Below are positions 5,179 to 54,658 of a stretch of DNA of 64,000 bases, one piece after another (the first letter of the stretch is position 1; each line of letters begins with the position of its first letter). The DNA lies in the NCBI GenBank assembly GCA_963817465.1, contig CAWFOP010000021.1, positions 91,429 through 155,428 of the forward strand, in the 5' to 3' direction. A program made the translations under genes and the position numbers. Under the pieces are notes generated by a model that did no database searches, was not told where the DNA came from, and saw nothing but the letters and a program-made list of their open reading frames with translations. Source of the DNA: an uncultured Acidobacteriota bacterium (GTDB lineage: Bacteria; Acidobacteriota; Terriglobia; Bryobacterales; UBA6623).

Positions 5179-6216
5179 ATGCGGATTTTGATCACAGGCA
5201 ATGCGGGCTATTTGGGTCAGGCGGTTGCGCGGTTGCTCGCGGCGAACGGCCATGAAGTCGTCGGAGTTGACAACGACCTCTACAAGAGCTGTTTGCTCGA
5301 TGCGGAAACGCATCGCCCGACTCTTCAGATCAAGCGCGACATTCGCGACCTCGAGCCCGGCCACTTCAAGGGCGTCGGTGCGGTCATCCATCTGGCGGGG
5401 TTGTGCAATGAGTCGCTGGTCCGCCTGAACCCGCACCTGACTTTTGAAGTCAACATCGAAGGCGCCTTGGCCGTCGCACGCGCCGCCCGGGCCGCCGGGA
5501 CGCCGCGTTTCGTCTTCGCTTCCAGTTGCGACGTTTACGGCGCCGCCGCGGGACAACGCGTGGACGAAGACGCCCCCTTGCACCCGGACAGCGCCTACGG
5601 AGAATCCAAGGTCTTTGTGGAAGCCGAGCTGGCGAAGCTGGCGAGCGAGCATTTTTGCCCCGTTTCGCTGCGGCTGCCTGACGTCTACGGGTTCTCACCG
5701 CGCATGCGCTTCGACCTGACCGTAAACGGGCTCGCGGGCAGGGCCGCCGCGACCGGCCGCGTTCAGCTTCGGACGCCGCCCGCCGACTGGCTGCCGATCC
5801 TCCACGTCGACGACGCGGCGGAGGCGTTCCGGCTGGCCGCGACCGCACCTTCCTATCAAGTTTGGTCCGAAGCGTTGAACGTGGGCAGCGAGGAGGCGAT
5901 TCACCGCACGCACGACATCGCCGAGACGATCGCCCGCCATTTCGGCGGGGCGCCGGTGGAATTCGCGCTCGAACGGCGGCCGAGGGCCGCCGTCTGTCGC
6001 CCCTCCTTCCAAAAGATCCGCGAGCGGTTGTCCGGGTTCCAGCCCGCCTGGGACCTCGAGCGCGGCGTGATCCAAATGCGCGACGCGTTCTTCAAGAGAA
6101 ACGTGACGGCCGTGGACATCGAAGGTCCGCGCTTCGATCGCTTGGCGCACCTCCGCTGGCTGTTTGACGCCGGTTCTCTGACCGAAAATCTACGCTGGAC
6201 CGCCGCCGCGCCATGA
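5179..6216 (+). CDS. NAD-dependent epimerase/dehydratase (extended SDR) family protein
   Basis: MRILITGNAGYLG Rossmann motif and the SAYGESK (YxxxK) catalytic motif. Confidence 0.8.
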   Translation: MRILITGNAGYLGQAVARLLAANGHEVVGVDNDLYKSCLLDAETHRPTLQIKRDIRDLEPGHFKGVGAVIHLAGLCNESLVRLNPHLTFEVNIEGALAVARAARAAGTPRFVFASSCDVYGAAAGQRVDEDAPLHPDSAYGESKVFVEAELAKLASEHFCPVSLRLPDVYGFSPRMRFDLTVNGLAGRAAATGRVQLRTPPADWLPILHVDDAAEAFRLAATAPSYQVWSEALNVGSEEAIHRTHDIAETIARHFGGAPVEFALERRPRAAVCRPSFQKIRERLSGFQPAWDLERGVIQMRDAFFKRNVTAVDIEGPRFDRLAHLRWLFDAGSLTENLRWTAAAP

Positions 6217-6484: not shown

Positions 6485-8578
6485 CTATTTCTTCACCGGC
6501 ATCAACTGCGAAGCGAAGTAGGTGAACTCGAGCGCCGTCCGCATCGCGAGTTGGTCCTGATTCGACGTCCCCCCGTGGCCGCCCTCGATGTTCTCGTAGT
6601 AGTAGAAGGGGTAGCCGTACTCCGCCATCTTCGCCGCCATCTTCCGGGCGTGGCCCGGATGCACGCGGTCGTCCTTGGTCGAGGTGTAGAACAAGACCTT
6701 CGGGTATGACTTTCCGGGCTTCAGGTTCTGATACGGCGAATACTTCGAGATGTACGCCCACTGGTCGGGGATGTCAGGGTCGCCGTACTCGGCCATCCAA
6801 CTGGCGCCGGCCAGTAGGTGGCTGTAGCGTTTCATGTCGAGCAGCGGAGCCCCGCAGTCGATCGCCGCGTAGAGATCGGGGCGCTGCGTCAGCGCCACGC
6901 CCATCAGCAGGCCGCCGTTGGAGCGGCCGACGGCGCCGAGCTTCTTGGGGTCGGTGACGCCGCGGGCGATCAAGTCTTCCGAGACCGCGAAGAAGTCGTC
7001 GTACGCCCGCTGGCGGTTCTGCTTGAGCGCCGCGTCATGCCAGCGCGGTCCGTACTCGCCGCCGCCGCGAATGTTCGCCAGCACTATCACGCCGCCGCGC
7101 GACACCCACAACTTGCCCGCCAAGGCCCCGTGCTGCGGCCGCGACGGGTCTTCGTAATACACCGGGAGTATCGGGATCAAGAAGCCGCCGTAGCCGTATT
7201 GGATCGTGGGAGCATCGCCTTTCTCCAATACTTCCTTACGCCCCATGACGAAGTAAGGGACGCGCGTGCCGTCTTTGCTCTTGGCGAAATGCTGCTCGAC
7301 AACCACGTCGGACGCGTCGTAGAGCTCGGGCAGCGATTGCACCGTCGTCACGCGGTCGTCGGCTGCTACGTGATGCAGCGTCTGGGGCGTCGTCAAACTC
7401 TCGGTGAGCAGGAAGAAGTCGTCTCGCTCGCCGTCCGCGGCCGCGATGCTGACGACGCCGTTCGGAGGGACGGAAATCTCGTGGGCGGTCCAGCCGTTGT
7501 CGCCGCGCGTCAGACGCATGGCCTTGCCGACCACATCGTCGAGCAGCGTGATGAAAACCGCGGTCTTGCCCGCGGCGACGCCGTCGAGCGCCTGATTCCG
7601 CTTTGGCGTGAACACCGACTCCGCCGACATGTCGTCGAGACGCAGCACGATCAACGTCCCTTGGGGATACGTCTCGCCTCTGTGCTTCCATGACTCCAAC
7701 AACTCGGCCAAAATCCGCCCGCCGGTCGCTCCGGCGATGCGCACTCCCTTGGGCAACGGGAGTTCCGTCAGCTCGCCGTTGGTCCGCAGCCAAAAGTACT
7801 TCGACTCATAGAAGGTCAACGACTGCTCCACGATTGGATAAGCTTCGTCGCCGTGGCGCAACACGTACGCCCGGGTCGAGACGTCGTCGATATCGCCCGT
7901 GTAGACGACTTTGGCGTCGTTGAAGTCCTGCCCGCGAGTCCACTTCCGCACCGTACGCGGATAACCCGACTTGGTGCGCCCTTCGCCCCAATCCGAGCTC
8001 ACCAGCAGCGTGTCCTCGTCGATCCAGGCCGCTGAATTCTTGCCCGTCGGGACGACGAATCCCGACTCCACGAACGACTTGCCCGCGAGTGAAAACTCGC
8101 GCTCGATCGAGGCGTCCGAGCCGCCCGGCGAAAGCTCGATCATGCAGCGCTCATACGCCGGTCCCAGGCAGTCCGCGCCGTGCCAAACCCAGTTCTTGCC
8201 TTCCAAAGCCGCGAAAGCGTCGACGTCGAGCAGCGTCTCCCACTCCGGCTTCCCCGTGCGGTAGCTCGCGACTGTCGCGCGCCGCCACAGGCCGCGCACA
8301 TGCTCCTCGTCCTGCCAGAAGTTGTAGAGATAGTCGCCGTGAATATCACCGAGCGGGATGCGCTGCTTCGAAGTTAGAATCGCGAGCGCCTCCTGATGCA
8401 TCGGCTCGTAGCGCGGGTCGGCCTCGAGCTCCGTCAATGAGCGCGCATTTTGCTTGCGCACCCAATCGAGTTGGTCTTTGCCGTCGATGTTTTCGAGCCA
8501 AACAAAGGGATCGCCGGACTGCGCAGCCGCCGAACACGCCCAGGCCAACAACGCCAAGCTAGTGAGGAATCGTTTCAC
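6485..8578 (-). CDS. Prolyl oligopeptidase (S9) family serine peptidase, secreted
   Basis: GRSNGGLLMG nucleophile elbow, a C-terminal DDRVHPGHARK region and an N-terminal beta-propeller-type sequence. A GTG start at 8578 gives the signal peptide VKRFLTSLALLAWACSAAAQ. The track ORF extends to 8674. Confidence 0.8.
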   Translation of the reverse strand: MKRFLTSLALLAWACSAAAQSGDPFVWLENIDGKDQLDWVRKQNARSLTELEADPRYEPMHQEALAILTSKQRIPLGDIHGDYLYNFWQDEEHVRGLWRRATVASYRTGKPEWETLLDVDAFAALEGKNWVWHGADCLGPAYERCMIELSPGGSDASIEREFSLAGKSFVESGFVVPTGKNSAAWIDEDTLLVSSDWGEGRTKSGYPRTVRKWTRGQDFNDAKVVYTGDIDDVSTRAYVLRHGDEAYPIVEQSLTFYESKYFWLRTNGELTELPLPKGVRIAGATGGRILAELLESWKHRGETYPQGTLIVLRLDDMSAESVFTPKRNQALDGVAAGKTAVFITLLDDVVGKAMRLTRGDNGWTAHEISVPPNGVVSIAAADGERDDFFLLTESLTTPQTLHHVAADDRVTTVQSLPELYDASDVVVEQHFAKSKDGTRVPYFVMGRKEVLEKGDAPTIQYGYGGFLIPILPVYYEDPSRPQHGALAGKLWVSRGGVIVLANIRGGGEYGPRWHDAALKQNRQRAYDDFFAVSEDLIARGVTDPKKLGAVGRSNGGLLMGVALTQRPDLYAAIDCGAPLLDMKRYSHLLAGASWMAEYGDPDIPDQWAYISKYSPYQNLKPGKSYPKVLFYTSTKDDRVHPGHARKMAAKMAEYGYPFYYYENIEGGHGGTSNQDQLAMRTALEFTYFASQLMPVKK

Positions 8579-10965: not shown

Positions 10966-12423
10966 ATGCCTGATCTTGAGATCCGCTTACTCGACGTCGG
11001 CGCGATTGAATACGGCGATTGCGTCCTCTGTACCGCCGGCGGGAAGAGCATTTTAATCGACGGCGGAAAGAAGAAAAGCAGCCAACAAACGGAAGACCGC
11101 GTCAACGGCCAAAACGTCACGCATCCGCCCATCCAGGAGCAGATCGAAAGCATCCTGGGTTCGACCGATGTGGATCTGCTCGTGGTCACCCACTGTCATT
11201 CCGATCACGTCGGCAATCTCCCCGCGTTGGTTACGGCGGGAGAGATCAATTGCGAGCACGCTCTGCTCGCCGACCCGCAGTTCGGCTTCGGTCTCGCCGG
11301 CGACGCCGCGGAACCCGGCTCCGCGTCAGACATGAGCCCGGCGGAAAAGCTCTGGATGGCGATGCGCGAGGAGCCGGTTCATTCGGCCGACGACGCGGAG
11401 GTCCTGCAGTTTATCGAGGATTCCGCGGCGGAATATGAGGAGTACCTGAGTCTCGTCACGACGCTGCAAGATCGCCTTGGGGACCGCTGTGTCCTTTACC
11501 GCGGCGCGAGCGAGGCGGAGTCGCCGGGGCTCGATGCGCTCTTGGAGGAGTTTCAAGACACGGGTCTGAAGATCTTCGGGCCAACGCAAGCCCAACTCGG
11601 CAACTGCGCTCTCTTTCTCGCCGGAAGAAGCGAGGACGTGGTCGAGATCCAAGACTCTCTCGACCGCGGCGGCGGAGTGGATTTGGTGGCCGCTTACCGC
11701 GAAGCCGTGCGCCTCGACGAAGCCCAGGACGCCGAGGACGCCGGCAGCAACGGCAACGCGGTCAACAACCAGAGCATCGTCTTGAGCGTCGGCGCCGGCC
11801 CGCAGCGGGCGCTGTTGACCGGCGACATGCAGTTCGTGAAACCGCAGCTCAGCAACGACGTCGTCAAGGCCGAGATGCTTGCCCTCAAAGACGCGATTTC
11901 CGCCGACGTGGACGCCAACGGCCCGTTCGGATTCGTCAAACTGTCGCACCACGGCGCGACGAACGGCCAGAACCAGACTCTCCTGAAGTCCTGGGGCGCC
12001 GAATTGTTCGGCATTTCGACCGGCAGCGGCAGCAACAAGCATCCGACCGCGGCGACCCTGACCGCTCTCAAGAAGCTCGTGATCCAGATGAGCGGCATGA
12101 AGTGGGCGCGTACCGACATGAACGGGATCGTCCGGTACACCGCCGACGGGAATCAACTTGGCCTGTTCAAGCAGCGCGGCAAGCTGAACGACGACACTCT
12201 TCCAGCCGGGCGCTCCGGCGACGCAGGCCCCGAGGAAGAGCCCATCGCCGCGCGCGCAGCGGTCTCGGCCGCGGCGGCTCCACAACCCGCGGTGCGGGTC
12301 GAGTCTTCATCAGGCGGCGAAGTCGAGGTCGTCGTGCGTTTGCCGTACGCCAAGACCCGCGTGACGATCACAGTCGATCTCGAACCGGGCGCCGCGTCAG
12401 GGGGACAAACCGGCCCTCTTTGA
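10966..12423 (+). CDS. MBL-fold metallo-hydrolase (ComEC/Rec2-related beta-lactamase-like domain)
   Basis: HxHxDH motif VVTHCHSDHVGN, then NNQSIVLSV...LLTGDM and KLSHHG motifs. It ends CTT TGA at 12418-12423, inside the open frame of the next gene. Confidence 0.7.
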   Translation: MPDLEIRLLDVGAIEYGDCVLCTAGGKSILIDGGKKKSSQQTEDRVNGQNVTHPPIQEQIESILGSTDVDLLVVTHCHSDHVGNLPALVTAGEINCEHALLADPQFGFGLAGDAAEPGSASDMSPAEKLWMAMREEPVHSADDAEVLQFIEDSAAEYEEYLSLVTTLQDRLGDRCVLYRGASEAESPGLDALLEEFQDTGLKIFGPTQAQLGNCALFLAGRSEDVVEIQDSLDRGGGVDLVAAYREAVRLDEAQDAEDAGSNGNAVNNQSIVLSVGAGPQRALLTGDMQFVKPQLSNDVVKAEMLALKDAISADVDANGPFGFVKLSHHGATNGQNQTLLKSWGAELFGISTGSGSNKHPTAATLTALKKLVIQMSGMKWARTDMNGIVRYTADGNQLGLFKQRGKLNDDTLPAGRSGDAGPEEEPIAARAAVSAAAAPQPAVRVESSSGGEVEVVVRLPYAKTRVTITVDLEPGAASGGQTGPL

Positions 12424-23819: not shown

Positions 23820-24347
23820 TCAGCTCGGCAACACTTCAAACTCGAAGGTCATCACCTTGCCGCGGATGACGAAGCACAAGTAGTGCTCCCAAAACTTGCG
23901 AAAGCCCCGCGAATGATTCACGAGAAACTCGAAGCCGAGCAGCCGCCACAGCCGCAATAGCTTCACGTAGAGAGAGCGCTCGCGCAGACGCCTCCGGCTG
24001 TAGTAGCTGAAGCCGCCGTCTTGGGTGAAGTAGCGGAACGAGTAGGTGTTCAAATGCCAGCGGTGCGTGGGGTCGCAGAACGAGCTGAAGTCGGTGTAAT
24101 GCGGCGTCTCGATGCGGATGAGGGCGCCCGGGCGGCAGACGCGGTGAGCTTCTTCGACGGTCGTGATGACGTTGTCGACGTGCTCGATCACGTGGATCAG
24201 AGAAACTTCATCGAACACCCGGTCGCGGAACGGCAGCGCGCCTTTGTTGATGTCGGCCAGCACGTCGGCGGCGGAGTCGGCGTTGAAGTCGACGCCGATC
24301 GCGCCGGGGCGCTTGTTGATGCCGCATCCGAGATCGAGGATTCGCAA
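23820..24347 (-). CDS. Class I SAM-dependent methyltransferase
   Basis: MRILDLGCGINKRPG (motif I) and FDEVSLIHVIEHV. Confidence 0.75.
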   Translation of the reverse strand: MRILDLGCGINKRPGAIGVDFNADSAADVLADINKGALPFRDRVFDEVSLIHVIEHVDNVITTVEEAHRVCRPGALIRIETPHYTDFSSFCDPTHRWHLNTYSFRYFTQDGGFSYYSRRRLRERSLYVKLLRLWRLLGFEFLVNHSRGFRKFWEHYLCFVIRGKVMTFEFEVLPS

Positions 24348-24570
24348 ACCAGAAAGCGTAGCACCTGAAGCCGCCGGCGCTCCGTGTCAGGCGCCAGGAG
24401 TCGGATCAGACCCAAGCGCCGGGAACAGCTTGCCGCACGCAAGCCCTTGATACGCCGGGGCTTGGTGCGGCGGAACCTGTCGGCATCGCTGCCATGAATC
24501 GCCGATTCGGCCGCACGATCGCCAACAACCCGCCAAAAACCCGCCAAAAAGCTGACGTGAAATAGCCGGG

Positions 24571-24628
24571 AAATGGTGAAAAGGGGTGAAAAGGGTGAAA
24601 AGGGGACAATGAAAAGGTGGTGAAAAGG
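24571..24628. repeat. Short tandem purine-rich repeats (GGTGAAAAGG-like, about 5 units) abutting repeat A
   Basis: aatggtgaaaaggggtgaaaagggtgaaaaggggacaatgaaaaggtggtgaaaagggg. The 12-mer AAAAGGGGACAA occurs twice (24598-24609 and 24623-24634). Confidence 0.7.
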
Positions 24629-24821
24629 GGACAACGCCCATTTTGGAGTTCGACTAGCTGGCCCAACGCGCCGGAAGTCTTGTCGCGTACCAGGTCGAGG
24701 TACGTTCGGCTCGGATCGTTCGACGAAGCGGCGGGGCGCTCCTGAGGCGTGTTCCGTCTATGAAGCCTCATGGAATCAGTTGGTTAGCCGAGTTCCTCGC
24801 CCGGAAATAGGCGTTGTCCCC
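24627..24821. repeat. Family-2 element, copy A (~195 bp, 17-bp perfect terminal inverted repeat)
   Basis: GAAAAGGGGACAACGCC (24622-24638) is the exact reverse complement of GGCGTTGTCCCCTTTTC (24810-24826). The core is near-identical to copy B. Confidence 0.8.
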
Positions 24822-24978
24822 TTTTCCCCCTCTCTCCCCCTCGCAAGTGAGCGCCAGCCTAAAATCGTTGCGTCGCCGAAGTGGGATCGGCTAATCTGCC
24901 AAGACGGAAATCCCGATTACGGTTGCGTTTCGCCTTGCGTCGTAATGGCCAAACTATTCGCTGTTGTGGAGAGAAGGG

Positions 24979-25836
24979 ATGGAGGAACGAAACACGCCTC
25001 GAGAGATGATTTCAGAAATCGCGAAACATGTGAGGACGACTCATCTCGCGATGTTGCTTGTATGCGCAGCCACGTATCTCACGCTCGCCACTCGATCGTC
25101 GTCAGACTTAACGATTGAAATCGAGACCGCATACCAGATTTCACAGGAATGGCGAGAGTTGATTGACCAATGGCGTCGCCATTCCCAAAAGTGGCTTCTT
25201 GATCACGACGAAAAGTATCCAGAGAATCTGCCCAGCGGCTCATTGTTCATCTCTCCTGACGACGCGGCGGACATAAATCGAGGCTCGTGGCTGCAGTTGC
25301 TGTATCCGGTCGTCACGACATGTGGACCTGCAAAGTACTTCGGGCAGGCAAGACTCCGGTTTCCGGACACCGAAAAACAACCTACCACCCTAGATGATAT
25401 GGCGCGGGCATGGGACAGCGTCAGCTCATGTTCATCACTAAGGATCACGGCGAAGATTCAGGACCTTAATATAGAAGATGTCGAAGGGCGAAGAGTCAGC
25501 GTCAGTTTGAGAACTTCTCCGGGAAAGGAACACGCACGCAATTTAGATTGGATGGAAACGGAAAAATGCTCAGACGAGCTACGCCAGTCCGCTTCTTACC
25601 GCGATTTCGCTAGTGGCCTCAACCGGCGTCCAGTCTGCGCCTTGGTTAACGGCTATATGATTTCCCTGACCGTTGACTCAGTGTCCCTAATAGCACCCGA
25701 TGATTTCGTGCACTGGTTGGCCGATCGGAAGAATCTAATGCTCCCCGCCACCGGAGATAAGACTTTCGATAACGTGTTTCCAAGACTGTCAGCATCGACC
25801 GTGCACAAACGAACTTCGCCTTGTCAGAATTGGTGA
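24979..25836 (+). CDS. Hypothetical membrane-anchored protein (low-GC orphan)
   Basis: N-terminal TM helix HLAMLLVCAATYLTLA. No recognisable motif and visibly lower GC than the surrounding genome. It is the only sizeable ORF inside the islet. Confidence 0.4.
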   Translation: MEERNTPREMISEIAKHVRTTHLAMLLVCAATYLTLATRSSSDLTIEIETAYQISQEWRELIDQWRRHSQKWLLDHDEKYPENLPSGSLFISPDDAADINRGSWLQLLYPVVTTCGPAKYFGQARLRFPDTEKQPTTLDDMARAWDSVSSCSSLRITAKIQDLNIEDVEGRRVSVSLRTSPGKEHARNLDWMETEKCSDELRQSASYRDFASGLNRRPVCALVNGYMISLTVDSVSLIAPDDFVHWLADRKNLMLPATGDKTFDNVFPRLSASTVHKRTSPCQNW

Positions 25837-26416
25837 ACCCGAAAATCGCGATCAGTTAAGTTCTTCCGACACACAATTTCTATAGCAAAGATGTGTTAGG
25901 GCTCGCGATAAACAAGACTACTCTGAATTTTGCCTTTACAGTTATCGTTTTGATCCAATAAGATTTACCTTTTGGTTCATCTGAGGGAAACTTGCGAGAT
26001 TTAGGTCTCAGATTCCGCAACAAGTAGATATTGCTTGGATGGGGCTATACCGTGACAAATGGGCTAGACGTTTAGCGGCACTCGGCTTATGGGTGCCAAC
26101 TCTGAGGAGCACGCCTGATTGATGGAGTCTTCTTACTTAGGAGTTCAGCCCCTGGCACCTCTTATTGGGCTTCTACGTGTTCTTTTCACTGGATGTTGAA
26201 AACGTGGCAGACGCTCAAGGCCGTCAATGGCGTGCAGCACTGACGAATGCACGATGGTCAGATGACGGCACCAAGAGCATGCGTTAACCGCAGAGGACGA
26301 GGCCGACTGACGATTAGACGTCACCAGCGATAACCAATCTTCAATTCTTCAAACCGATCAGACAACTGCTGCCCCGTCTATTCGGAATTCTGTAGAAAGG
26401 GTGAAACCCTTTCCTT

Positions 26417-26672
26417 GGTGGACAACGCCCATTTGCGTGGAGTTCGACTGGCTGCCGCCCAACGCAATGCCGGTGCAAGTACTTGTAACGTTGGGTACCA
26501 GGACTTTTTCGAGATAACGTTCGGACTGGCGAACAATGAATCTCGTTTCTGCAAGCCGTGAAGGGTCGGGGCGCCTGCCCTGAGGTCGTCTGGGTGGTAG
26601 GCCGCTTTGTGACGGCTCAAATTGGGTATTCAGTTGCAGTGTAGCCGATCTCACGACGCGCAAACCGGAAAG
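26417..26672. repeat. Family-2 element, diverged copy C (same orientation as A and B)
   Basis: Shares ordered blocks with A: gacaacgcccattt, ggagttcgact, cccaacgc, gtaccagg, acgttcgg, cggggcgc, cctgagg, tcagttg, tagccga, ccggaaa. Variable-length segments lie between the blocks. Confidence 0.6.
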
Positions 26673-26825
26673 GAAATGAGGGAAAGGTGACAAGGAAGGG
26701 AATTCAATTGTCTTGTTGGAAGTAGGCGCGCAGGCATCCGGAGCACATGCCGCCGCTGCGGTCCTCGTCGCGGCACAATTCCTGGCATTGATCGCAGGTG
26801 ACATATTCGCGGGGGAAAGGGGGAA

Positions 26826-27018
26826 GGACAACGCCCATTTTGGAGTTCGACTAGCTGGCCCAACGCGCCGGAAGTCTTGTCTCGTACCAGGTCGAGGTAC
26901 GTTCGGCTCGGATCGTTCGACGAAGCGGCGGGGCGCTCCTGAGGCGTGTTCCGTCTATGAAGCCTCACGGAATCAGTTGGTTAGCCAATCTCATCGCCCG
27001 GAAATAGGCGTTGTCCCC
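26826..27018. repeat. Family-2 element, copy B (direct repeat of copy A)
   Basis: By eye only 2 substitutions versus A from ggacaacgccc to cagttggttagcc, then a diverged ~12-nt patch, then the shared aaataggcgttgtcccc. The subterminal 15-mer TGTCCCCTTTTTCCC is duplicated (27012-27026 and 27042-27056). Confidence 0.8.
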
Positions 27019-27544
27019 TTTTTCCCTTACCGAATTGAGTCTGTCCCCTTTTTCCCAGATTCATCACCGTCGTAGTGCGGCGGAGGTCAATCGCACCTTC
27101 AAGCGGGCCTTCGTCGAAGCCGACAATCTGGAGCCGACGCAGGAACCCAGCCAATCCCCGCTCTCGCGCTTCCCGTCGAAGGGGTCTCGACAAAACGGGT
27201 CGTACATCGAGCGGCAAAGGTCGCATTGCACGCCGTCGTAATCGGACCCGGTCATGTGGCTGCCATTGGTCGCGTCCTAGCGCCCGGCCAACCAGCCTCG
27301 CGGGAAGCGACAGCGGAGACAAATCTCGGTCGAGTTGGCGGAGTTCAACGCACCTCCGTCCCAATACTGTCGTACTGAGGGAATTCGCACGAGCATCTCC
27401 ATCAGCGAGGCTGTCCACCTGCTGTGAACCCACAATCCCAACTGGAAGCAGGGCGGCGACCGGTCATCTCCGAACTCAGCTAAGATAGCGACCGTGAACC
27501 AGACTTTTCGTGTCTTGGTTGAAGAGACAAGAAGGAGTTAAGCG

Positions 27545-28987
27545 ATGTCAATACACAGTAGGGCGCTTGGGCGACGATCATTTCTGAAACGGGGAGCCGC
27601 GGCTGCGGGCCTTGGCCTGTTTGCTGACCTTGAGGCCTATCCCCAAAACGTCAACCGGAATTCGAAGCCGTCGGATTTGAGAATCACCGACATGCGCATC
27701 GCCGTTTGCAGAACGCCGCCAGGTCAGGCGGGCGGGGGCGCGGCGGGGCGGGCGGAGGCTCGGCAACGCCGCCCCCTGTGTTTCCCCACACGGGAGGCGC
27801 CTCAGGAGGCACGATCCTTGTCCGAATAGATACCAATCAGGGAATTTCGGGCTACGGCCAGACGATTAATGACGGCCCCCGGCCTAGCTACGTGCTTACG
27901 CATAAGTCCCGGGTGGTCGGCGAGAATCCTTGCAACGTCGACAAGATCTTCCGCAAGATGAAAATGCATGGCGGGTATAACCGTCAGGGGAGCGGCGTCA
28001 ACGCGATTGAGAACGCGTTGTGGGATCTGGCCGGCAAAGCTTATGACGTGCCGATCTATCAAATGCTTGGCGGGAAATTCCGCGAAAGGATCCGCATGTA
28101 CACCGAGGGTGCGGTGCGCTCGAATGACCCGAAAGAAATCGGCGCCGCATATAAGGCGCGAGTCGAAGCCGGGTTTACGATGGTCAAGTATGATCTGAAC
28201 GTAGCTGAGAATTCTCGGAGACACGCCGGGCACGATATATGCCCCGGCAGGATATCAGGGGGAACCGGGGGAGGACCCTGAGAACTACTATCAGGGAATC
28301 GAGATCAGCAATAAAGGGTGCGAACTCGTAACGGACCATGTCGCTGCGATTAAGGAGGCCATGGGCGACGCCGCCGACGTTCCCATGGGGCACGACCATT
28401 TCGGGCACCTTACCGTGGACAGTATCATCAAGCTCGCTCGCGCGTTGGAGAGGGTCACTCCTTCGTATTTGGAAGACTGTGTCCCGTGGTTCCGCGTGAA
28501 GGAGTGGAAGAACATCACCGAGTCGATCCAGATACCCACCCTGACCGGCGAAGACGCCTACCTGGTGGAATCGCTCGAGCCGCTTTGCGAGGAGCGCGCG
28601 GTCGATTATATCCACCCGGATCACAATGTTATCGGCGGCTGTCTCGAATTGAAGAAGGTGGGCGACATGGCGGCCAAATACGCGGTAGGGATGCTGGTCC
28701 ACAGCAACGCTACTCCAATCGGTTACGCTGCCGGCGTACACGCGATAGCCGCCACCCAAAATTTCCTAGCCATGGAATGGCACCAGCCGCAGCCGGCCTG
28801 GCACAAAGACATATGCGACAAAGGGGACCTCGTGGTAAACGGTTACATTCCCGTTCCGACGGGGCCCGGCTTGGGCATCAATGTCAATGAAGAGGCGATT
28901 CGCGCGGTTTGCAGGGAGGGTGAGTTCTTCACCGATCCTACGGAGTATTGGGATACGCAAAAAGGCGGGGAGAAGGGATATACGTAA
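27545..28987 (+). pseudogene. Enolase-superfamily (mandelate racemase / D-galactonate dehydratase-like) gene with Tat signal, split over three frames
   Basis: Frame 2: MSIHSRALGRRSFLKRGAAAAGLG...LRITDMRIAV. Frame 1: GGTILVRIDTNQGISGYG...NAIENALWDLAGKAYDVPIYQMLGG...MVKYDLNVAE. Frame 2 again: ILGDTPGTIYAP...MGHDHFGHL...LTGED...PTGPGLGINV. The shifts lie within the G-rich tract ~27715-27745 and at ~28205-28212. Confidence 0.75.
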
Positions 28988-43344: not shown

Positions 43345-44415
43345 TCAAGCGCGCCGCCTGGGAAGGTACACTCCTTCAAAAAAGGCACGTCGACCTTGAT
43401 GGCGACCCGCGTCCATTGGTATTAAGTTCGCCTGGATCAGAACCGAGTGGACAGTCTCATCAAGCTCCCGACGTCCCTCCGGCTGGATTTGCCGCTCCAC
43501 CCTCACCGATCGAAGGCCTTTCGTATAGACGACCCGTCCAACCATGCCGGCAATCATGATCAACAGGACCACGACGTGCCACCAACCGAACGGGAGCACA
43601 CCGATTAGCTCGAGCGCGATCACGGCTGCGGTCAGCAGCACGGCGGTCAGCTGCGGTTCTGAGAACGCATATACGAAATACCGTCCTGGATCTCCCCTCA
43701 GGAATTCAAACGAGAAACGCCCGGCGCCATAGCCCACAATGTATAAGGCAACGTTCTCACCCGGCGCATGATGTAGGATGTGCGTGGCGATTGCGAGCCC
43801 GGCTAGCATAAATAGCCACGTAGCCTCCACCAGCTGAACCGGAAAGAGCCGTACTCCTCTGACAAAATAGAAGTATCCGGTTGCGGCGTGCCTGCTTCCA
43901 TAGCGGACGCCCCATCCGCTGGGTCGACCGTGACAGCATCCCGCCATAAAACACCCCACTCTGCCAAAAGCCTGATACACGAGCAGGGCAACGACTAGAA
44001 TGTCCAAATATGCGAAGACAGGTTCTCTCAGCAGTAGAAGGAGCGCTACGGTGAAGATCAGCGCCACAATCTGAAAATGATAGACGCCCTTCTTCGCCCA
44101 GTTCAGCAGGGAGTAAGAGCGCCGTAGCAGTTTAGTGCTCTTGAACAGGGCGAACGACAACATAGCCACCAATCCCACGATTGTCGCTAGCACCGAGATG
44201 GAAACCGGGGCCGTAGAGGCGAGTGCGAAAAGAACGCCGGTACCCACGACCACCCCGGAGTAGATCCATACGAAGTAGCTATTCCAGGTTCGTCCAAAAC
44301 AGGTAATCTCGCGCTTCGCGGCCGCGTCCATGAGAAGATTAAAGAGCCGTTGAATTTGAGCTTTCATGAACGTTCTTTTGCTCCTTATCGCTATTCCTAA
44401 TCCTTCACCGATCAT
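43345..44415 (-). CDS. Lgt-family (prolipoprotein diacylglyceryl transferase-like) polytopic membrane protein
   Basis: Seven or so hydrophobic helices plus FGRVGCFMAGCCHGRP, the G-R-x-G-C-x-x-x-G-C-C-x-G variant of the Lgt signature as I recall it. It is the last gene of the RiPP island. An alternative start is ATG 44367. Confidence 0.55.
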   Translation of the reverse strand: MIGEGLGIAIRSKRTFMKAQIQRLFNLLMDAAAKREITCFGRTWNSYFVWIYSGVVVGTGVLFALASTAPVSISVLATIVGLVAMLSFALFKSTKLLRRSYSLLNWAKKGVYHFQIVALIFTVALLLLLREPVFAYLDILVVALLVYQAFGRVGCFMAGCCHGRPSGWGVRYGSRHAATGYFYFVRGVRLFPVQLVEATWLFMLAGLAIATHILHHAPGENVALYIVGYGAGRFSFEFLRGDPGRYFVYAFSEPQLTAVLLTAAVIALELIGVLPFGWWHVVVLLIMIAGMVGRVVYTKGLRSVRVERQIQPEGRRELDETVHSVLIQANLIPMDAGRHQGRRAFFEGVYLPRRRA

Positions 44416-44422
44416 GATTTAC

Positions 44423-46759
44423 TTATATCTCAAGCGCATCACGCTCCAGTAAGAGAACGGAAGGCGCTTTCCGATCGTACAGCCGGAGATAGAAGTAGCC
44501 GACGCCGCTAAGCCCAAGCATGAGCCCCGGCGCTCTCGACCCTAGAGAGCCGAAGGGCCATTGATGTCGTCGTGCTCCATGCTTGCGAATCCCCTCAGCA
44601 GCCACTTTCATGGCCACTTCGCGGCCATCGGGGAAGGCGTCCCCGAGGATCTCAGAACCAATGGTGAGAATGTCGGCATTGCCGGCAAGACCGTGGCAGA
44701 GCGAGAAATTGAATACTCCAGAGTCGAGGGTGCGCAAAGTCCATCGCAGCGTCGTCGTCAAGGCCGTGAGGGCTTCGGATCTACAGCGCTCATCGTCCAA
44801 GACACGGAAGGCATGGAGGCGCGAAAGGGCGATGCCGGCGGCTCCATGGCACCAGAAGGCCGGGAAGTCGACAGGACAGTCGATCCTTGTCGCACGCGCA
44901 GGCACGCCGCGGAAGTCCGGCCAATTACCCAACTCTTCGTTGAACCAGAGCCGCTCATACTTGAAGGCGTCTTGGGCGAGGTCGCGGTACTCGGTATTTT
45001 GAGTGGCCCGATACAATTCGATCAGGCCGTGGGCGACGCCCGCCGTACCATGTGAGAGTCCGAGCAACCCGCGTTGTTTTGGAAAGTCCGGAGACTTCCA
45101 GGAACAACATTCGCCTTTTCTTTGTGCGGCTCGAACGAGTTGGCTCCCTAGTTGAACTGCGAAGTCCGAACGGTCAAAGCCGCCCAGGATATGGCCCAAT
45201 ATCAGGAGTGCAACGATAGCGCCGCCGCTCCCGGATACCAGGTCGGCGCTAGAAACAACCGGATTCCGCCGCAGGGCATCCTCCACTAGGTGCACGGCGC
45301 GGCGGACAAGGTCCTCCTCGCCGAGCCGCCTGCCGACGTAGGCGGCCGCGACCGCTACGCCCAGGACGCCTTCATATAAGCCCAGCCCTTTGCACAACGA
45401 CGGCGAACAGGAGGCGGATATCGCCTGCCGAATTGCACCGAGAGCAGTCCGCCGCACGGCAATCTCGCCAGTGGCCGCATGCAGTTCCGCCAGAAACAAG
45501 GCAATGCCACTCGTCCCGGCATAAAAATCGGGTCCAAGCGTCTGATACGCCAACCCAGAGTCATACTGCCGCGGAAGGCTATTTTGCGGAAACCCGACAC
45601 CCATCCAGTTGCATCGCTCGTCGTGCCAAATCGCGGCCTCACAAAGAAGGCTCCCGATGTCAAATGCTGTCTCCAATAGCGTCTCTCGGCGGATCGCGGG
45701 CTGTTTGGGAATTCGACGGCCTCTCGCGGTTCCGGGGAGCCGGGAACGGGGTGCAAGGTGGAAAATGTCTTCAGAACCAGGATTGAGAAACGGCTGATCG
45801 AGCGAGACTCCCTGTTCGTCAAAATAGTCCTGCACGGCCGCTACACGCCCGCTGACCGCTGTTTCGCGCAACTCCGCAACGCGCACTAGACCTTCGGCCA
45901 GTATTTGACAGCGGTGCATGCCGAAACTAACCCCCCGGTTTGGCTGCTCCGCTATCCCGAGGCCCAGGCGGAGCCGCTTGGTAAATGCCGGCGTCTCGTT
46001 CTTTAGGTACGGCGCCACTTTGGGCTGAATCAACTCCAGCAGCGGCCGGATACGCGAGTAATCCTCTTTGGCCGTGTAGAGGACCGCAGAATCAGCCCGT
46101 ATGAATAAGTTGGGGTCGTCCACGACCTTCAGCCTGTACGGAATGCGGTCCCGGTTGAATGTTGAAGTTAGAGCCCGCATCAGGACGGTCGCCCCTTCCG
46201 CATGAAGATTCCAATACAGCCTGACGACGGGCGTGTTGCCGCCCGTTGGCAAAACCTCATCTCCCATCGCCTGGTAGAATCCCGGCGACATGAAGGGCAG
46301 CTCTTTCGGCATCGATGTCGAGACTTTATCGCCCTTGATCGGTTCAACTCGAAGAAAGGAGGTCTCACCGTCATTGACATAGAGGCGAAGTCCATTCTGT
46401 TGTATGGCGATCAAATCGCCTTTTTGGTCAATCACCTCCCAACCATGCTGCACAAATCCTTTGCCGTGGTTGGCTGCGGAAAGTGCATTGACAAACGCGC
46501 TCTTTGATGAAACCGGCGAGGGTTGCGCCTCGAAGGATTGCACCGGCACAGCAGCGCCTTTGCAGTAGAAGTGGCTATAGAGCCTCTGTTGCAGTCCGTG
46601 AATGAGGCAGGTCCGCGCGGTTTCCGGAGGTAGCGACCGTCTCAGGCGCAGCGGAAGGGTAGTCTCATGTTCCCAAAACCAAAACCAGGAGAAGGGAGGT
46701 TGAACCTGCGTGGCCTGCACGGCTGACCGCAATCGCTCAACGTGTTCACACGTGCTCAT
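44423..46759 (-). CDS. Fusion protein: N-terminal HopA1-like (putative phospho-Ser/Thr lyase) domain + C-terminal LanC-like lanthionine cyclase
   Basis: C-terminal LanC motifs: AGTSGIALFLAELH, LSHGTAGVAHGLIEL, FWCHGAAGIALSRL and SLCHGLAGNADIL (Zn ligands Cys, Cys-His). The N-terminal ~340 aa (RLYWNLHAEG...RLKVVDDPNLFIRADSAVLY...PAFTKRLRLGLGIAEQPNRGVSFGMHRCQILAEGL) matches my memory of the HopA1 effector-family pattern. No search was run. Confidence 0.7.
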   Translation of the reverse strand: MSTCEHVERLRSAVQATQVQPPFSWFWFWEHETTLPLRLRRSLPPETARTCLIHGLQQRLYSHFYCKGAAVPVQSFEAQPSPVSSKSAFVNALSAANHGKGFVQHGWEVIDQKGDLIAIQQNGLRLYVNDGETSFLRVEPIKGDKVSTSMPKELPFMSPGFYQAMGDEVLPTGGNTPVVRLYWNLHAEGATVLMRALTSTFNRDRIPYRLKVVDDPNLFIRADSAVLYTAKEDYSRIRPLLELIQPKVAPYLKNETPAFTKRLRLGLGIAEQPNRGVSFGMHRCQILAEGLVRVAELRETAVSGRVAAVQDYFDEQGVSLDQPFLNPGSEDIFHLAPRSRLPGTARGRRIPKQPAIRRETLLETAFDIGSLLCEAAIWHDERCNWMGVGFPQNSLPRQYDSGLAYQTLGPDFYAGTSGIALFLAELHAATGEIAVRRTALGAIRQAISASCSPSLCKGLGLYEGVLGVAVAAAYVGRRLGEEDLVRRAVHLVEDALRRNPVVSSADLVSGSGGAIVALLILGHILGGFDRSDFAVQLGSQLVRAAQRKGECCSWKSPDFPKQRGLLGLSHGTAGVAHGLIELYRATQNTEYRDLAQDAFKYERLWFNEELGNWPDFRGVPARATRIDCPVDFPAFWCHGAAGIALSRLHAFRVLDDERCRSEALTALTTTLRWTLRTLDSGVFNFSLCHGLAGNADILTIGSEILGDAFPDGREVAMKVAAEGIRKHGARRHQWPFGSLGSRAPGLMLGLSGVGYFYLRLYDRKAPSVLLLERDALEI

Positions 46760-47894
46760 GACGCCGTCCCGGCAACGGAAGCCCCAATAGCTGCACAGCG
46801 GCTTCCATCGGCCGGGCTAAGATGTTGGAACATAGTTGCAGTAGAGAAACGGCACGAGCGCCAACGCTAGCTTCAACCTGCGATTGCTCGTATGCGGTTT
46901 GGACGAGCCTGACGCCAGCGAAGCTGACGGCGCGCAAGAGCCAAGCCTCTTCTTCGGCAGCGGAAATTCTCATTCGACGGCGGTAGACGCTCCAGAAGGC
47001 TCGTAAAGCAGGCTGCATCCGATGCAGTGGAAACAGGGCAAGACTCAGGAATTGGTCGGGCGGGTGATCGTTGGAGATCGGGATCGATGACAGCCAAAGC
47101 GTCAAGTATTCACTGAAGACCGTGCCGACGTCCCAGCAGGGGTCGCCCAATCGCGCCAACTCCCAGTCGACGATCTTCAACTCAGCCTCCGGGCGAGGCG
47201 CCTCGGCGCATATCAGGCAGTTGTCCCACTTGAGGTCGCCATGGATGAACGTCTCATTCGTCCACTGACCTCTGCAAGCTTCGAATGACTTGCAGAGCTG
47301 ATCCGATTCCTGAATGATCTTAATCAGATCCAGACTCGCCAGGCTGGAATGTAGATAGACCCATTGATCAGGAACGGGAAGAAAAAACACCCATGGCGGC
47401 TTTTCGGGCGCGCGAAGGCTCTTGGTTACGTGGGTTCTTTCCAGCGGCGACGTGTTGTGACACTCGGCAAGCGCCGCAGCCAGCAACCGGGCGATTGTGG
47501 ACGGGAAACGGCCTCGACGCAAGCAATGATCCCGAAGAGTCGTCGATTCCAAGAAAGCTTCGATGATCAGGACTTGCTCGGCGCTATCGAACGCGTAGTA
47601 GCGAGGAAGCGCATGAAAGCCGGCTCGACCGGAATAGACAGTCGCCAGCAATTCATAGACGGCAGCCTCGTACGCAACCGTGGCGAACTTCCGGCGCCGT
47701 GGCGGACTCCCCCTGGTTTCCTGCTTGAGGAAATAATGCGGCCCTTTGCCGTTGATCACTTTAAGGTTGCCGTTGCGCCGAGACGCATTCACAACAGAGA
47801 CGCCGTCGCCAACGACCGCCGCACTCGACACCCACCCCTCGTTCAGCAGGTAGCGTACGACATCTCCGTATCCGGTCAGCACTGACCTAGGCAC
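46746..47894 (-). CDS. Stand-alone phosphotransferase (APH / protein-kinase-like fold)
   Basis: Brenner motif FIHGDLKWDNCLI and IVDWELARLGDPCWDVG. Its stop overlaps the next gene's ATG by 14 nt. Confidence 0.75.
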   Translation of the reverse strand: MPRSVLTGYGDVVRYLLNEGWVSSAAVVGDGVSVVNASRRNGNLKVINGKGPHYFLKQETRGSPPRRRKFATVAYEAAVYELLATVYSGRAGFHALPRYYAFDSAEQVLIIEAFLESTTLRDHCLRRGRFPSTIARLLAAALAECHNTSPLERTHVTKSLRAPEKPPWVFFLPVPDQWVYLHSSLASLDLIKIIQESDQLCKSFEACRGQWTNETFIHGDLKWDNCLICAEAPRPEAELKIVDWELARLGDPCWDVGTVFSEYLTLWLSSIPISNDHPPDQFLSLALFPLHRMQPALRAFWSVYRRRMRISAAEEEAWLLRAVSFAGVRLVQTAYEQSQVEASVGARAVSLLQLCSNILARPMEAAVQLLGLPLPGRRHEHV

Positions 47895-47947
47895 CCATCG
47901 AGGAAGTTAGGGCTTAGTTTGCGCGAGCGTGCAGAGCACCGCTGAAA

Positions 47948-48448
47948 TCAACACCCGCAGCCAGTGGGAGGGTTCGGCCCGCAGAGCGGAGGCGATGAAG
48001 TTGTCGGTATGGGACAATTCGGGTCTCCGGGGAGGTCTGTCGGACAGCCGCCCCAAGACGTGCCTCCGCCAGTCCCTACCAAGGCCGAGATCAGACCGCT
48101 GACGCCAGTCGCTCTTCGCCCATGCGCGGCTTGGATGCTTCCCTTCAGGAAGTCGCCCGACACGACACCTGTGGAGATCAACTGCACCCTCAAGTCTCCA
48201 GGTATCCATACGGCAATTTGCCCGGCGGGAAAACGCTTGACACCGAGGATCCGGTCGACCGGCACCTGAAAGTACTGATTCAGATGGAGCGACGTGTACA
48301 CGCGCAGCGTTTTAGCGTCCGGCCCCCTTCCAATGAGTGTGCCAACCAGTACGTTCACATCCGGATTGTTCGGATCAGGAATTAACCGGTTGATCAGATC
48401 GTCCTCGGTCAACTCCTTCCATCCTTCAGTTGGTCCTTTTTCCGCCAC
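47948..48448 (-). CDS. Putative RiPP (lanthipeptide-type) precursor: ~129-aa Cys-free leader + 37-aa Cys/Ser/Thr/Pro-rich core
   Basis: GTG start at 48448 is 5 nt after GGAGG. The C-terminus TSWGGCPTDLPGDPNCPIPTTSSPPLCGPNPPTGCGC has 5 Cys, 8 Ser/Thr and 10 Pro. There is no Cys anywhere upstream of it. It is the first gene of the island operon. Confidence 0.7.
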   Translation of the reverse strand: MAEKGPTEGWKELTEDDLINRLIPDPNNPDVNVLVGTLIGRGPDAKTLRVYTSLHLNQYFQVPVDRILGVKRFPAGQIAVWIPGDLRVQLISTGVVSGDFLKGSIQAAHGRRATGVSGLISALVGTGGGTSWGGCPTDLPGDPNCPIPTTSSPPLCGPNPPTGCGC

Positions 48449-52270: not shown

Positions 52271-53242
<972 letters not shown>

Positions 53243-53245
53243 AAA

Positions 53246-54559
53246 CTACTCGGCTAGGCGCACGCCGCTGAACTGCCAGCGCGCCTCGGGCGGAAAGAAA
53301 TTGCGATACGTCGAGCGCATATGGTCTTGAGACGTTACGCACGAGCCGCCGCGCAGCACGAACTGATTGCACATGAACTTGCCGTTGTACTCGCCGACGG
53401 CGCCCGGCGCGGCGCGGAAGCCCGGGTAGGGCGAGTAGGGGCTCGCCGTCCACTCCCAGACGTCGCCGAACATTTGAACCAAGCCGGGTCCGGGCGGCGC
53501 GGGGGCGGGGTGATGGCGGCCGGCGTCGCGGAAGTTGCCGACGATCTCGATTCCGTCGGCCGCGATCTCCCACTCGGCCTCGGTCGGCAGACGCTTGCCG
53601 GCCCAGTTGGCGTAGGCGTCGGCCTCGAAGTAGCTGAGGTGGGTGACCGGCTCGTTCTCATCGAGCGGCACGACGCCGCCCAGGGTGAACGCGCTCCAGC
53701 GGCCGTTACCGCAGTTGCGCCAGTAGAGCGGGGCTTCCCAGCGGTTTTCGAGGACGGCCGCCCAGCCCAGCGACAGCCAATGCTCGGGCTTGCGATAGCC
53801 GCCGTCTTCGATGAACTCGAGGTACTCGCCGTTGGTGAGCAAGCGCGAGGCTAAGCGGAAGGGCTCGAGATAGACCTTGTGGCGCGGCGATTCATTGTCG
53901 TAGGCGAAGGCTTCTCCGTGGTAGCCGATCTCGCGGACGCCGCCTGGGAACTCGACCCACTCGCACGGCGCCGGCTCAATCGTGAACTCGGCGATCTCGG
54001 GGAACGCTTGATAGACGGGGTCGAGCGGGTTAGTCGCCAAAATGTGCTTGAAGTCGGTGAACAGCAGCTCTTGGTGTTGCTGTTCGTGGTTGAAGCCCAG
54101 CTCGAGCAACCCGCCGATTTTCAGCCAGTCGTCGTCGGAGGCATTGGCGAGCAGCGCGGCCATGCCGCGGTCAACATGGCCGCGGTAGGCGTAGGTGTCG
54201 CTTACCGTCGGGCGGCTCAGCAGGCCGCGCTCGGGGCGGGGATGGCGCTCGCCGACCGCCTCGTAATACGAATTGAACAGGTAGTTATAGCGCGGATGGA
54301 ACTTGCGGTATTCCTGGTCGAAGGCCTCGAGCAGGAACGTCTCGAAGAACCAGGACGTGTGCGCCAGATGCCATTTGGGCGGGCTGACGTCGGGCATCGT
54401 CTGCACGACGTAGTCCTCCACGGCGAGCGGACGGCAGATCTGTTCGGACACCGCCCGGATGCGCTTGTAGCGCTCGAGCGCGGCGTCACGATCGGTTGCG
54501 GCCGCTGCGGGAGCGGAGTCGGGGGACTGCAGGGAGGCCATACGCGAGGAGGTCCTCAT
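53246..54559 (-). CDS. egtB: Ergothioneine biosynthesis sulfoxide synthase EgtB (DinB_2 + FGE-sulfatase domains)
   Basis: PPKWHLAHTSWFFE, GFNHEQQHQELL and the C-terminal GDVWEWTASPY...RGGS motifs. Start is ATG 54559 or 54541. The track's 754-aa ORF adds about 317 residues, most of them antisense to hemB. Confidence 0.85.
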   Translation of the reverse strand: MRTSSRMASLQSPDSAPAAAATDRDAALERYKRIRAVSEQICRPLAVEDYVVQTMPDVSPPKWHLAHTSWFFETFLLEAFDQEYRKFHPRYNYLFNSYYEAVGERHPRPERGLLSRPTVSDTYAYRGHVDRGMAALLANASDDDWLKIGGLLELGFNHEQQHQELLFTDFKHILATNPLDPVYQAFPEIAEFTIEPAPCEWVEFPGGVREIGYHGEAFAYDNESPRHKVYLEPFRLASRLLTNGEYLEFIEDGGYRKPEHWLSLGWAAVLENRWEAPLYWRNCGNGRWSAFTLGGVVPLDENEPVTHLSYFEADAYANWAGKRLPTEAEWEIAADGIEIVGNFRDAGRHHPAPAPPGPGLVQMFGDVWEWTASPYSPYPGFRAAPGAVGEYNGKFMCNQFVLRGGSCVTSQDHMRSTYRNFFPPEARWQFSGVRLAE

Positions 54560-54658
54560 GTTAGCGTGCGAACTTCGCTCCATCTTGTAAACACCGCCGG
54601 CTGAAACAGAGTTACAACAGAGGCGTGCGGACTCGTACGCCGCGTTAAGATTGGGACG

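Follow-up and report, generated by a model that had tools for sequence, protein, structure and literature searches.

The 64,000-nt stretch of contig CAWFOP010000021.1 analyzed here (the window), from an uncultured soil Bryobacterales bacterium of the phylum Acidobacteriota, contains an islet of low guanine-plus-cytosine (GC) content in which three copies of one repeat (A, C, and B, in this order) lie in the same orientation, and which we tentatively interpret as the work of miniature mobile elements. The islet lies within 24348 to 27544, between a methyltransferase gene (23820 to 24347) and a gene of the MR_MLE (enolase) superfamily that begins at 27545. Because the methyltransferase gene lies on the minus strand, position 24347 marks its start, whereas an earlier first-pass annotation of this DNA took it for the end. 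GC content was 0.636 across the window, 0.64 to 0.65 in the flanks (0.65 in the flanking genes), and 0.45 to 0.52 between A and B (0.52 for the segment as a whole), reaching its minimum in a stretch without open reading frames (ORFs) that follows the only convincing gene between the two repeats. The first-pass annotation had already pointed out both this stretch and the single gene.

As delimited by repeat finding and blastn, A (24629 to 24829) and B (26826 to 27026) are 201 nt each, 97% identical, in the same orientation, and 2197 nt apart from start to start. Aligned in register they differ at seven positions: 24685 (G/T), 24771 (T/C), four within 24790 to 24796, and 24826 (C/T). Only the first 46 nt of C aligned with A and B by blastn, at 87% identity. 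Beyond these, C consists of short collinear blocks separated by many insertions and deletions, a similarity that was significant with cheap gaps (z score of 9.1) and not with stricter ones (z score of 1.9), and it lacks the right-hand inverted repeat. These data bear out the first-pass description of direct repeats around compositionally foreign DNA with C as an older copy; its diverged patch is real but spans 7 nt rather than 12, and the seven differences are counted over all 201 nt. Within that patch (24790 to 24796) the substitutions are clustered, C agrees with B, and A differs. The change turns the right arm of A into GAGTTC, a hexamer of its own left arm (24647 to 24652), and improves the A hairpin; templating or conversion may lie behind it. 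The 10-mer GGACAACGCC or its complement occurs five times in 64 kb, always within the islet, where about 0.1 occurrences would be expected (4^-10 arithmetic). The repeats are noncoding: the peptides read from frames beginning within the core are unrelated from copy to copy, ORFs are not conserved across copies, and the small ORFs that overlap the repeats were absent from the protein collection.

A terminal core of 18 to 21 nt, GGGGACAACGCCCAyTTT(CCG), lies within terminal inverted repeats of 24 to 25 nt in A and B, and is itself an 8-6-8 quasi-palindrome, AAAAGGGG-ACAACG-CCCATTTT. In A, the left core sequence is GGGGACAACGCCCATTT, the right one is AAATAGGCGTTGTCCCC, and the 25-nt arms are 92% complementary; the left inverted repeat of A matches the right one of B over 21 nt at 95%. 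The interiors between the arms occupy 24644 to 24804 in A and 26841 to 27001 in B. Outside the cores, the DNA is purine rich on the left and pyrimidine rich on the right. The purine-rich side of A carries an array whose 10-bp period is helical, and within it the 16-mer GGTGAAAAGGGGACAA occurs twice (24594 to 24609 and 24619 to 24634, 25 bp apart). On the far side of B, the TGTCCCCTTTTTCCC at 27042 to 27056 is identical to 27012 to 27026, 30 bp away. Exact 15- to 16-nt duplicates of the terminal motif thus lie 25 to 30 bp beyond both outer ends, left of A and right of B. This layout resembles the multisite ends of Tn7, Mu, and IS21. Including these extensions, the units measure about 255 to 290 bp (A, approximately 24571 to 24856; B, approximately 26803 to 27057). 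The terminal inverted repeats and the purine- and pyrimidine-rich extensions had gone unmentioned in the first-pass annotation, which was otherwise accurate in its description. Coordinates of the individual features are collected in Table 1.

TABLE 1. Features in and beside the low-GC islet (positions within the 64-kb window)
Feature	Coordinates	Strand	Remarks
High-GC (0.64) noncoding spacer	24348-24570	none	Homology to relatives ends at ~24365 (blastn)
11-bp tandem repeat CGCCAAAAACC, 2.8 copies	24520-24550		Left of A, inside the spacer (TRF)
Purine-rich subterminal tract of A	24571-24634	+	GGTGAAAAGG, 5.2 copies, 10-bp period (TRF); array at 24575-24630
Element A	24619-24829	+	161-nt interior between inverted repeats at 24619-24643 (left) and 24805-24829 (right)
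Pyrimidine-rich right extension of A	24830-24856	+	CTCTCTCCCCCTCGCAAGTGAGCGCC; direct comparison
Orphan ORF, 285 aa	24979-25836	+	GC 0.516; GGAGA-type ribosome-binding site upstream
ORF-free stretch, lowest GC of the islet (0.475)	25837-26394	none	Composition and ORF list
Element C, old copy	26420-~26680	+	Left core and next ~30 nt conserved; remainder riddled with insertions and deletions
Degenerate left-type terminus GGGAAAGGTGACAAGG	26680-26695	+	Directly 3' of C; weak, read from the sequence
44-aa Cys-rich ORF (CxxC...CxxC)	26704-26838	-	ATG inside the left core of B; host-like third-position GC
Element B	26803-27026	+	Core of the left end at 26826-26840 and inverted repeat of the right end at 27002-27026; purine-rich extension, degenerate, at 26803-26825
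Terminal motif, additional subterminal copy right of B	27040-27056	+	TGTCCCCTTTTTCCC at 27042-27056
63-aa Cys-rich ORF	27064-27255	-	Ends where the B extension ends; uncertain (ORF list)
MR_MLE (enolase-superfamily) gene	27545-28987	+	Split over frames 2/1/2; neighbor, outside the repeat system

Compared with shuffled sequences, A was predicted to fold with a z score of -5.2 as RNA, on either strand, and -5.7 as DNA; B scored -2.9 and C -0.77, the latter not above shuffles. The strong fold of A, the conservation of the 5' 46 nt among the three copies, and the general frequency of tandem small RNA paralogues would suit a family of structured small RNA genes, with A, C, and B as tandem paralogues in an AT-richer intergenic region. 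We regard this as improbable. No relevant Rfam match was returned, whether at gathering thresholds or at E values up to 10, and no promoter or terminator signal was found. Both strands fold equally well, as those of a DNA palindrome would, whereas C is unstructured; the covariation term of the alignment fold was unfavorable (+1.14, three sequences), the A-specific patch alters one side of a helix only, and conservation across genomes (described below) is limited to the termini.

The geometry of A, with inverted repeats of 24 to 25 nt around 161 bp and a gene for a possibly membrane-anchored protein downstream, also fits an inverton, in which a trans-acting invertase would flip the segment between the 24-nt inverted repeats of A or B and so toggle the downstream gene. 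In multilocus invertons, such as those of the Bacteroides Mpi type, the inverted repeats are conserved and the interiors less so, which speaks for the same reading. An inverton is nonetheless distinctly improbable here: neither A nor B was found to contain a sigma-70-like promoter, no invertase gene lies within the 64 kb, C has no right arm, and no gene on the same strand starts within 500 bp of B. Inversion would also leave the purine- and pyrimidine-rich extensions and the extra half-sites unexplained.

Comparison with relatives showed that the islet occupies a variable position. Homologues of the methyltransferase carry source names that include Solibacterales and Bryobacter, which places the window within the Acidobacteriota, in the order Bryobacterales or near it. 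In the three closest relatives available, the methyltransferase is 84 to 89% identical and the genes beyond its other side are syntenic, but nucleotide homology stops at 24363 to 24365 (blastn). This synteny break, some 18 nt before the start codon of the methyltransferase gene, is where the islet begins; in its place the relatives have genes for a GH172 protein or for a cytochrome c and a pyrroloquinoline quinone (PQQ)-dependent dehydrogenase. The segment from A to B is absent from all three. An empty site with the clean breakpoints at A and B that the first-pass annotation had envisaged was not recovered in these genomes, because their gene content on this side is not the same. A contig of a closely related strain from the Logan collection matched the window over 24348 to 24507, where the contig ends.

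Beyond close relatives, the repeat is rare and not ubiquitous. A 22-nt pattern from the interior shared by A, B, and C had no exact match in 185,579 GTDB representative genomes or in viral contigs, and its one match in 241 million metagenome records fell within a coding region and is attributable to chance. A 19-nt pattern from the terminus gave four matches and none in viral contigs. Three of the four are isolated occurrences in unrelated taxa, and about nine chance matches would be expected from the size of the collection. The element, the islet, and the terminus, when compared with plasmid and phage collections by blastn, returned no match or chance matches only, and a full-text literature search for the motif returned only irrelevant primer matches.

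The fourth terminus match lies in a Bryobacterales metagenome-assembled genome (locus L009, identical to L010 apart from an offset of 3671 nt) and, judged by the sequence around it, is not a product of chance. The 23 nt GAAAAGGGGACAACGCCCATTTT at the left end of A are identical at this locus. Two further copies accompany the L010 core, one 83 bp upstream and the other, a weaker match, 7.7 kb away, so that 8 kb hold the core two to three times (three matches versus 0.07 expected). It is preceded by a similar purine tract, GAGAAAAGGGAGAAAAGGGG, and followed by a degenerate inverted partner. Both A and the L010 copy are followed by CCCCCTCTCT and TGAGCGC, the local alignment of CCCCCTCTCT alone being not significant. 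Beyond about 45 nt, A and L010 are not significantly similar, and a terminus of about 25 to 45 nt is the only part shared across genomes. Since only this terminus of about 45 nt is common to A and L010, we take it to be the conserved and presumably functional part. The L010 copies start 6 to 14 nt past the stop codon of a low-GC gene for a SEC-C-domain protein and adjoin IS110, IS1182-like, and IS481 elements; the termini of the latter two differ from those of the repeat. The motif was absent from the three other contexts in which homologues of the SEC-C gene were examined, and therefore does not travel with that gene.

The L010 locus is itself a dense hotspot of mobile elements. Direct repeats of 84 nt (5830 to 5913 and 6756 to 6839, 99% identical) surround an IS110 fragment, the IS1182-like element (6941 to 8380) has 35-nt inverted ends, and tandem repeats of about 91 bp (12120 to 12320) lie upstream of a sulfatase gene.

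The form of the core and its positions in the two genomes raise the main rival to a transposon-based explanation, namely, that a tyrosine or serine recombinase with its gene elsewhere targets the 22- to 28-nt quasi-palindromic core. Foreign segments would then be captured and lost between cores, loosely as integron cassettes or Acinetobacter pdif modules are, and A and B would be products resembling attL and attR. Several observations accord with such a module. The core has inverted 8-nt arms around a 6-nt center, A, B, and C become homologous at one and the same base (GG|ACAACG), and in two genomes the copies form clusters, with one orientation prevailing, where host and low-GC DNA meet; the absence of target duplications and of a local mobility gene would fit a host-encoded or distant recombinase. 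However, no recombinase is linked to the repeats at either locus, A and B each hold two inverted cores and a conserved interior, unlike a simple att site, and homologues of the L010 SEC-C gene occur in other contexts without the motif. The core also differs from the recombination sites with which we compared it, as detailed below, and we judge a module of this kind unlikely. In a more specific form of the proposal, an undescribed gene-capture system of the Bryobacterales would recombine at the core with its phased purine-rich half-site repeats, and its recombinase, encoded elsewhere, would bring short foreign segments into these sites and excise them again. Such a system would explain one-orientation clusters at host/foreign junctions in two genomes without target duplications or local mobility genes, and we consider it quite unlikely.

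Among known recombination sites, integron attC sites invite comparison; Acidobacteria do carry chromosomal integrons (PMC8352920). Like the cassettes of a cluster of attC sites without an integrase (CALIN), the islet presents imperfect palindromes with AAC and GTT ends (GGACAAC ... GTTGTCC) in the same orientation beside a low-GC orphan ORF, which would be the gene cassette, and no integrase nearby. We scored both halves of the Acidobacteria attC profile, taken from the supplement of PMC8352920, across the window; its consensus is GCCTAAC-AACTC-GTTGAAGCG ... CGCTTAAC-TCGAGC-GTTAGGC (PMC8352920). The ends of A, B, and C scored -14.2 bits for the 5' half and -13.2 bits for the 3' half, against +22.7 and +22.5 expected of a member, and these values fall at about the 95th to 99th percentile of random positions in the window. 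R'' and R' boxes are present (GGACAAC ... GTTGTCC), at R-box scores of just +2.4 and +1.1 bits, but the L'' and L' boxes, the spacers, and the overall profile fit are lacking in A, B, and C. Nor do the repeats have the extrahelical (bulged) bases near their ends that would give strand asymmetry, and at 191 to 201 bp they exceed the usual attC length. The right arm at L010 lacks GTT, and no IntI-like sequence was detected in the window by tblastn (best E value of 1.0, with IntI1 as the query). A CALIN is, on this evidence, highly improbable. The best match to the 5' half of the profile in the window (ACCCAACTCTTCGTTGAACCAGAGCC, 22 bits) lies inside a LanC-like gene at 44927 to 44952 and is probably due to chance, because it has no matching 3' half.

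Site-specific integration of an island, with A and B as attL and attR, was one of two options offered by the first-pass annotation. Islands of this kind, as well as IMEX and pdif modules, share with the islet direct repeats that flank DNA of foreign composition at a variable locus and a core built of an arm, a 6-nt spacer, and an arm. The defining marks are missing, however. Across the 64-kb window, no transposase, integrase, or other recombinase domain was found in the ORFs checked against Pfam, Phage_integrase included, and ARAGORN detected no tRNA or transfer-messenger RNA gene that could serve as an integration target. The repeat is a complete palindromic unit and not a duplicated gene end. 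The core is likewise unlike the dif site predicted for Solibacter, ACTTCCGATAACGAATATTATGTCAACT (PMC3025954 supplement), and the window contained no dif-like site even when as many as 3 mismatches were allowed, which argues against Xer recombination. Two further candidates were rejected. A retron would call for a reverse transcriptase, and the downstream ORF has neither a match to that family nor a YxDD motif; the template and variable repeats of a diversity-generating retroelement were dismissed in turn, the differences between A and B not being adenine specific.

The second option of the first-pass annotation, a composite of two MITEs (miniature inverted-repeat transposable elements), accounts best for the data. 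Bacterial MITEs such as Correia/NEMIS and ERIC are defined as elements of 50 to 800 bp with terminal inverted repeats of at least 10 to 15 bp and a target duplication of 2 to 10 bp (PMC11602168). A and B are similarly short (201 nt, or about 255 to 290 nt with their extensions), noncoding, and hairpin forming, have terminal inverted repeats longer than that minimum, and encode no transposase of their own. They differ from typical MITEs in their seemingly low copy number and clustering, in their purine-rich subterminal repeats, and in having neither a target duplication nor an identified parent insertion sequence. A close architectural precedent is provided by the TIME-COMPs, in which directly oriented miniature elements of 209 to 256 bp bound 1.3 to 4.8 kb; some of these have no flanking duplications, and it has been proposed that they arise when a circle integrates by homologous recombination into a copy already present (PMC13367494). 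As in the Tn3-derived elements IS101, MITESen1, and TIME244 (PMC13367494, PMC4133298), two elements of 200 to 260 bp, which may be directly oriented, bracket 1 to 5 kb of unrelated DNA, and their directly repeated copies invite deletion. Here, A and B, 2197 nt apart, enclose DNA with a GC content of 0.52. The islet differs from the TIME-COMPs in its chromosomal acidobacterial setting, in having an orphan gene as cargo, and in lacking 5-bp duplications. The termini themselves do not place the repeat within the Tn3 family, whose inverted repeats of about 38 bp run GGGG ... TAAG: of these, A and B share only the outer GGGG, with CGGCTAAC at positions 32 to 39 of the right end. Comparison of the terminus with the TIME244 and IS101 repeats gave z scores of -2.3 to 1.4, no better than shuffles, in a test of low power (cross-subgroup references reached z scores of 0.4 to 2.6).

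Several results weigh against this interpretation. Among 3750 pairs of candidate boundaries in each case, flanking matches of at least 4 bp numbered 13 for A, 9 for B, and 0 for the composite from A to B, with about 15 expected by chance, and neither the 2- to 10-bp duplications of MITEs nor the 5- to 6-bp duplications of Tn3-type elements were detected around A, B, or the composite. Because no flanking duplication exceeded chance, these data do not demonstrate transposition of A, B, or the pair. All instances of the core in 64 kb fall within 2.5 kb, so that the copies look few and clustered rather than dispersed, and the second genome has a single exact 19-mer terminus. No autonomous parent with the termini of the repeat was found in the window or in the fetched loci. 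The true outer ends of A and B could not be fixed, because they fade into low-complexity purine and pyrimidine tracts, and a shape such as the 8-6-8 of the core is commoner among recombinase core sites than among transposase ends. The conserved termini, the multisite subterminal repeats, the foreign cargo at a plastic locus, and the known composite architecture support the interpretation. Taking these points together, we assign a probability of about 45% to the interpretation that A, B, and C are copies of a noncoding, nonautonomous, MITE-like repeat restricted to the Bryobacterales lineage, with A and B arranged like a composite of two miniature elements; our confidence is limited by the missing target duplications, the few clustered copies, and the missing parent element. 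With the recombination module, the inverton, the small RNA family, and the CALIN, this interpretation makes up some five-sixths of the total probability, and the remainder belongs to explanations not listed here. The repeat family looks undescribed, and its MITE-like kind looks ordinary in itself.

Under the MITE-like interpretation, the unit would comprise an interior of 160 to 250 nt between inverted termini, each terminus being a core preceded by purine-rich repeats of the outer half of that core. The termini would be the functional part, most probably the sites that a transposase or recombinase, with its gene at another place in the genome, binds and cuts. Copies would have accumulated at a variable spot just upstream of the conserved methyltransferase gene, a plastic locus that also appears to have acquired about 2 kb of low-GC DNA laterally, with one orphan gene, and the young pair A and B would bracket this foreign DNA in the manner of two miniature elements forming a composite. 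We infer both that mobility is supplied in trans and how the pair arose, which may have been by two insertions or by the homologous integration of a one-copy circle into a resident copy. The arrangement would now be inert except for RecA-mediated recombination between A and B, which, regardless of how the pair arose, would delete 24830 to 26825 together with one copy and leave a single copy behind, in agreement with the excision foreseen in the first-pass annotation.

The enclosed orphan gene lies 150 nt downstream of A. Among 5.8e9 clustered proteins its only match was itself, a HMMER pass over 1.84e9 representatives yielded no homologue, and it had no Pfam or NCBIfam match and no meaningful PHROG match. 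An N-terminal hydrophobic segment was called weakly as a membrane anchor, the feature named in the first-pass annotation, and the gene is a true orphan. A single-sequence AlphaFold2 model was unusable (pLDDT of 31). The ORF-free stretch downstream had no Rfam match above chance and no match in phage or plasmid collections. On either side of B lie the two small Cys-rich ORFs, both bearing CxxC motifs and host-like codon GC; neither had a significant family match, and the 63-aa ORF was not recorded as a called gene. The 44-aa ORF may represent an older gene in truncated form or have arisen by chance, the two ORFs may together be what is left of an older gene that B interrupted, and the 63-aa ORF, if real, possibly marks the right edge of the islet.

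Turning to the neighborhood, the MR_MLE gene proved to be split into three ORFs (27545 to 27829, 27706 to 28281, and 28361 to 28987), with a Tat-like signal and with the MR_MLE_N and MR_MLE_C Pfam domains on separate ORFs. The family assignment of the first-pass annotation stands. Third-position GC in this gene (0.69 to 0.73) is below that of its neighbors, and the frame splits reflect either a pseudogene or insertion/deletion errors in the assembly. GC skew showed no switch at the islet and was uninformative at the scale of the window. Elsewhere, a block of lower third-position GC (0.62 to 0.66) at 43345 to 48448 encodes an LGT-like protein, a 778-aa protein with HopA1 and LanC-like parts, and an APH-type kinase; it looks like a split lanthipeptide synthetase set of class III/IV type and was possibly acquired laterally. 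At 52271 to 55510, an EgtD-like gene (Methyltransf_33) adjoins an EgtB-like gene (DinB_2 and FGE-sulfatase), suggesting ergothioneine biosynthesis.

The finding would matter more if the core were the recombination site of a new gene-capture mechanism, a proposal to which the evidence gives no strong support. If the MITE-like interpretation is correct, it would not be surprising, and it would add an undescribed family of miniature repeats to the Acidobacteriota, a phylum with little-studied mobile DNA, together with an instance, on a chromosome, of two miniature elements forming a composite around an orphan gene. Such a finding would help in annotating genomes and in accounting for their local plasticity.

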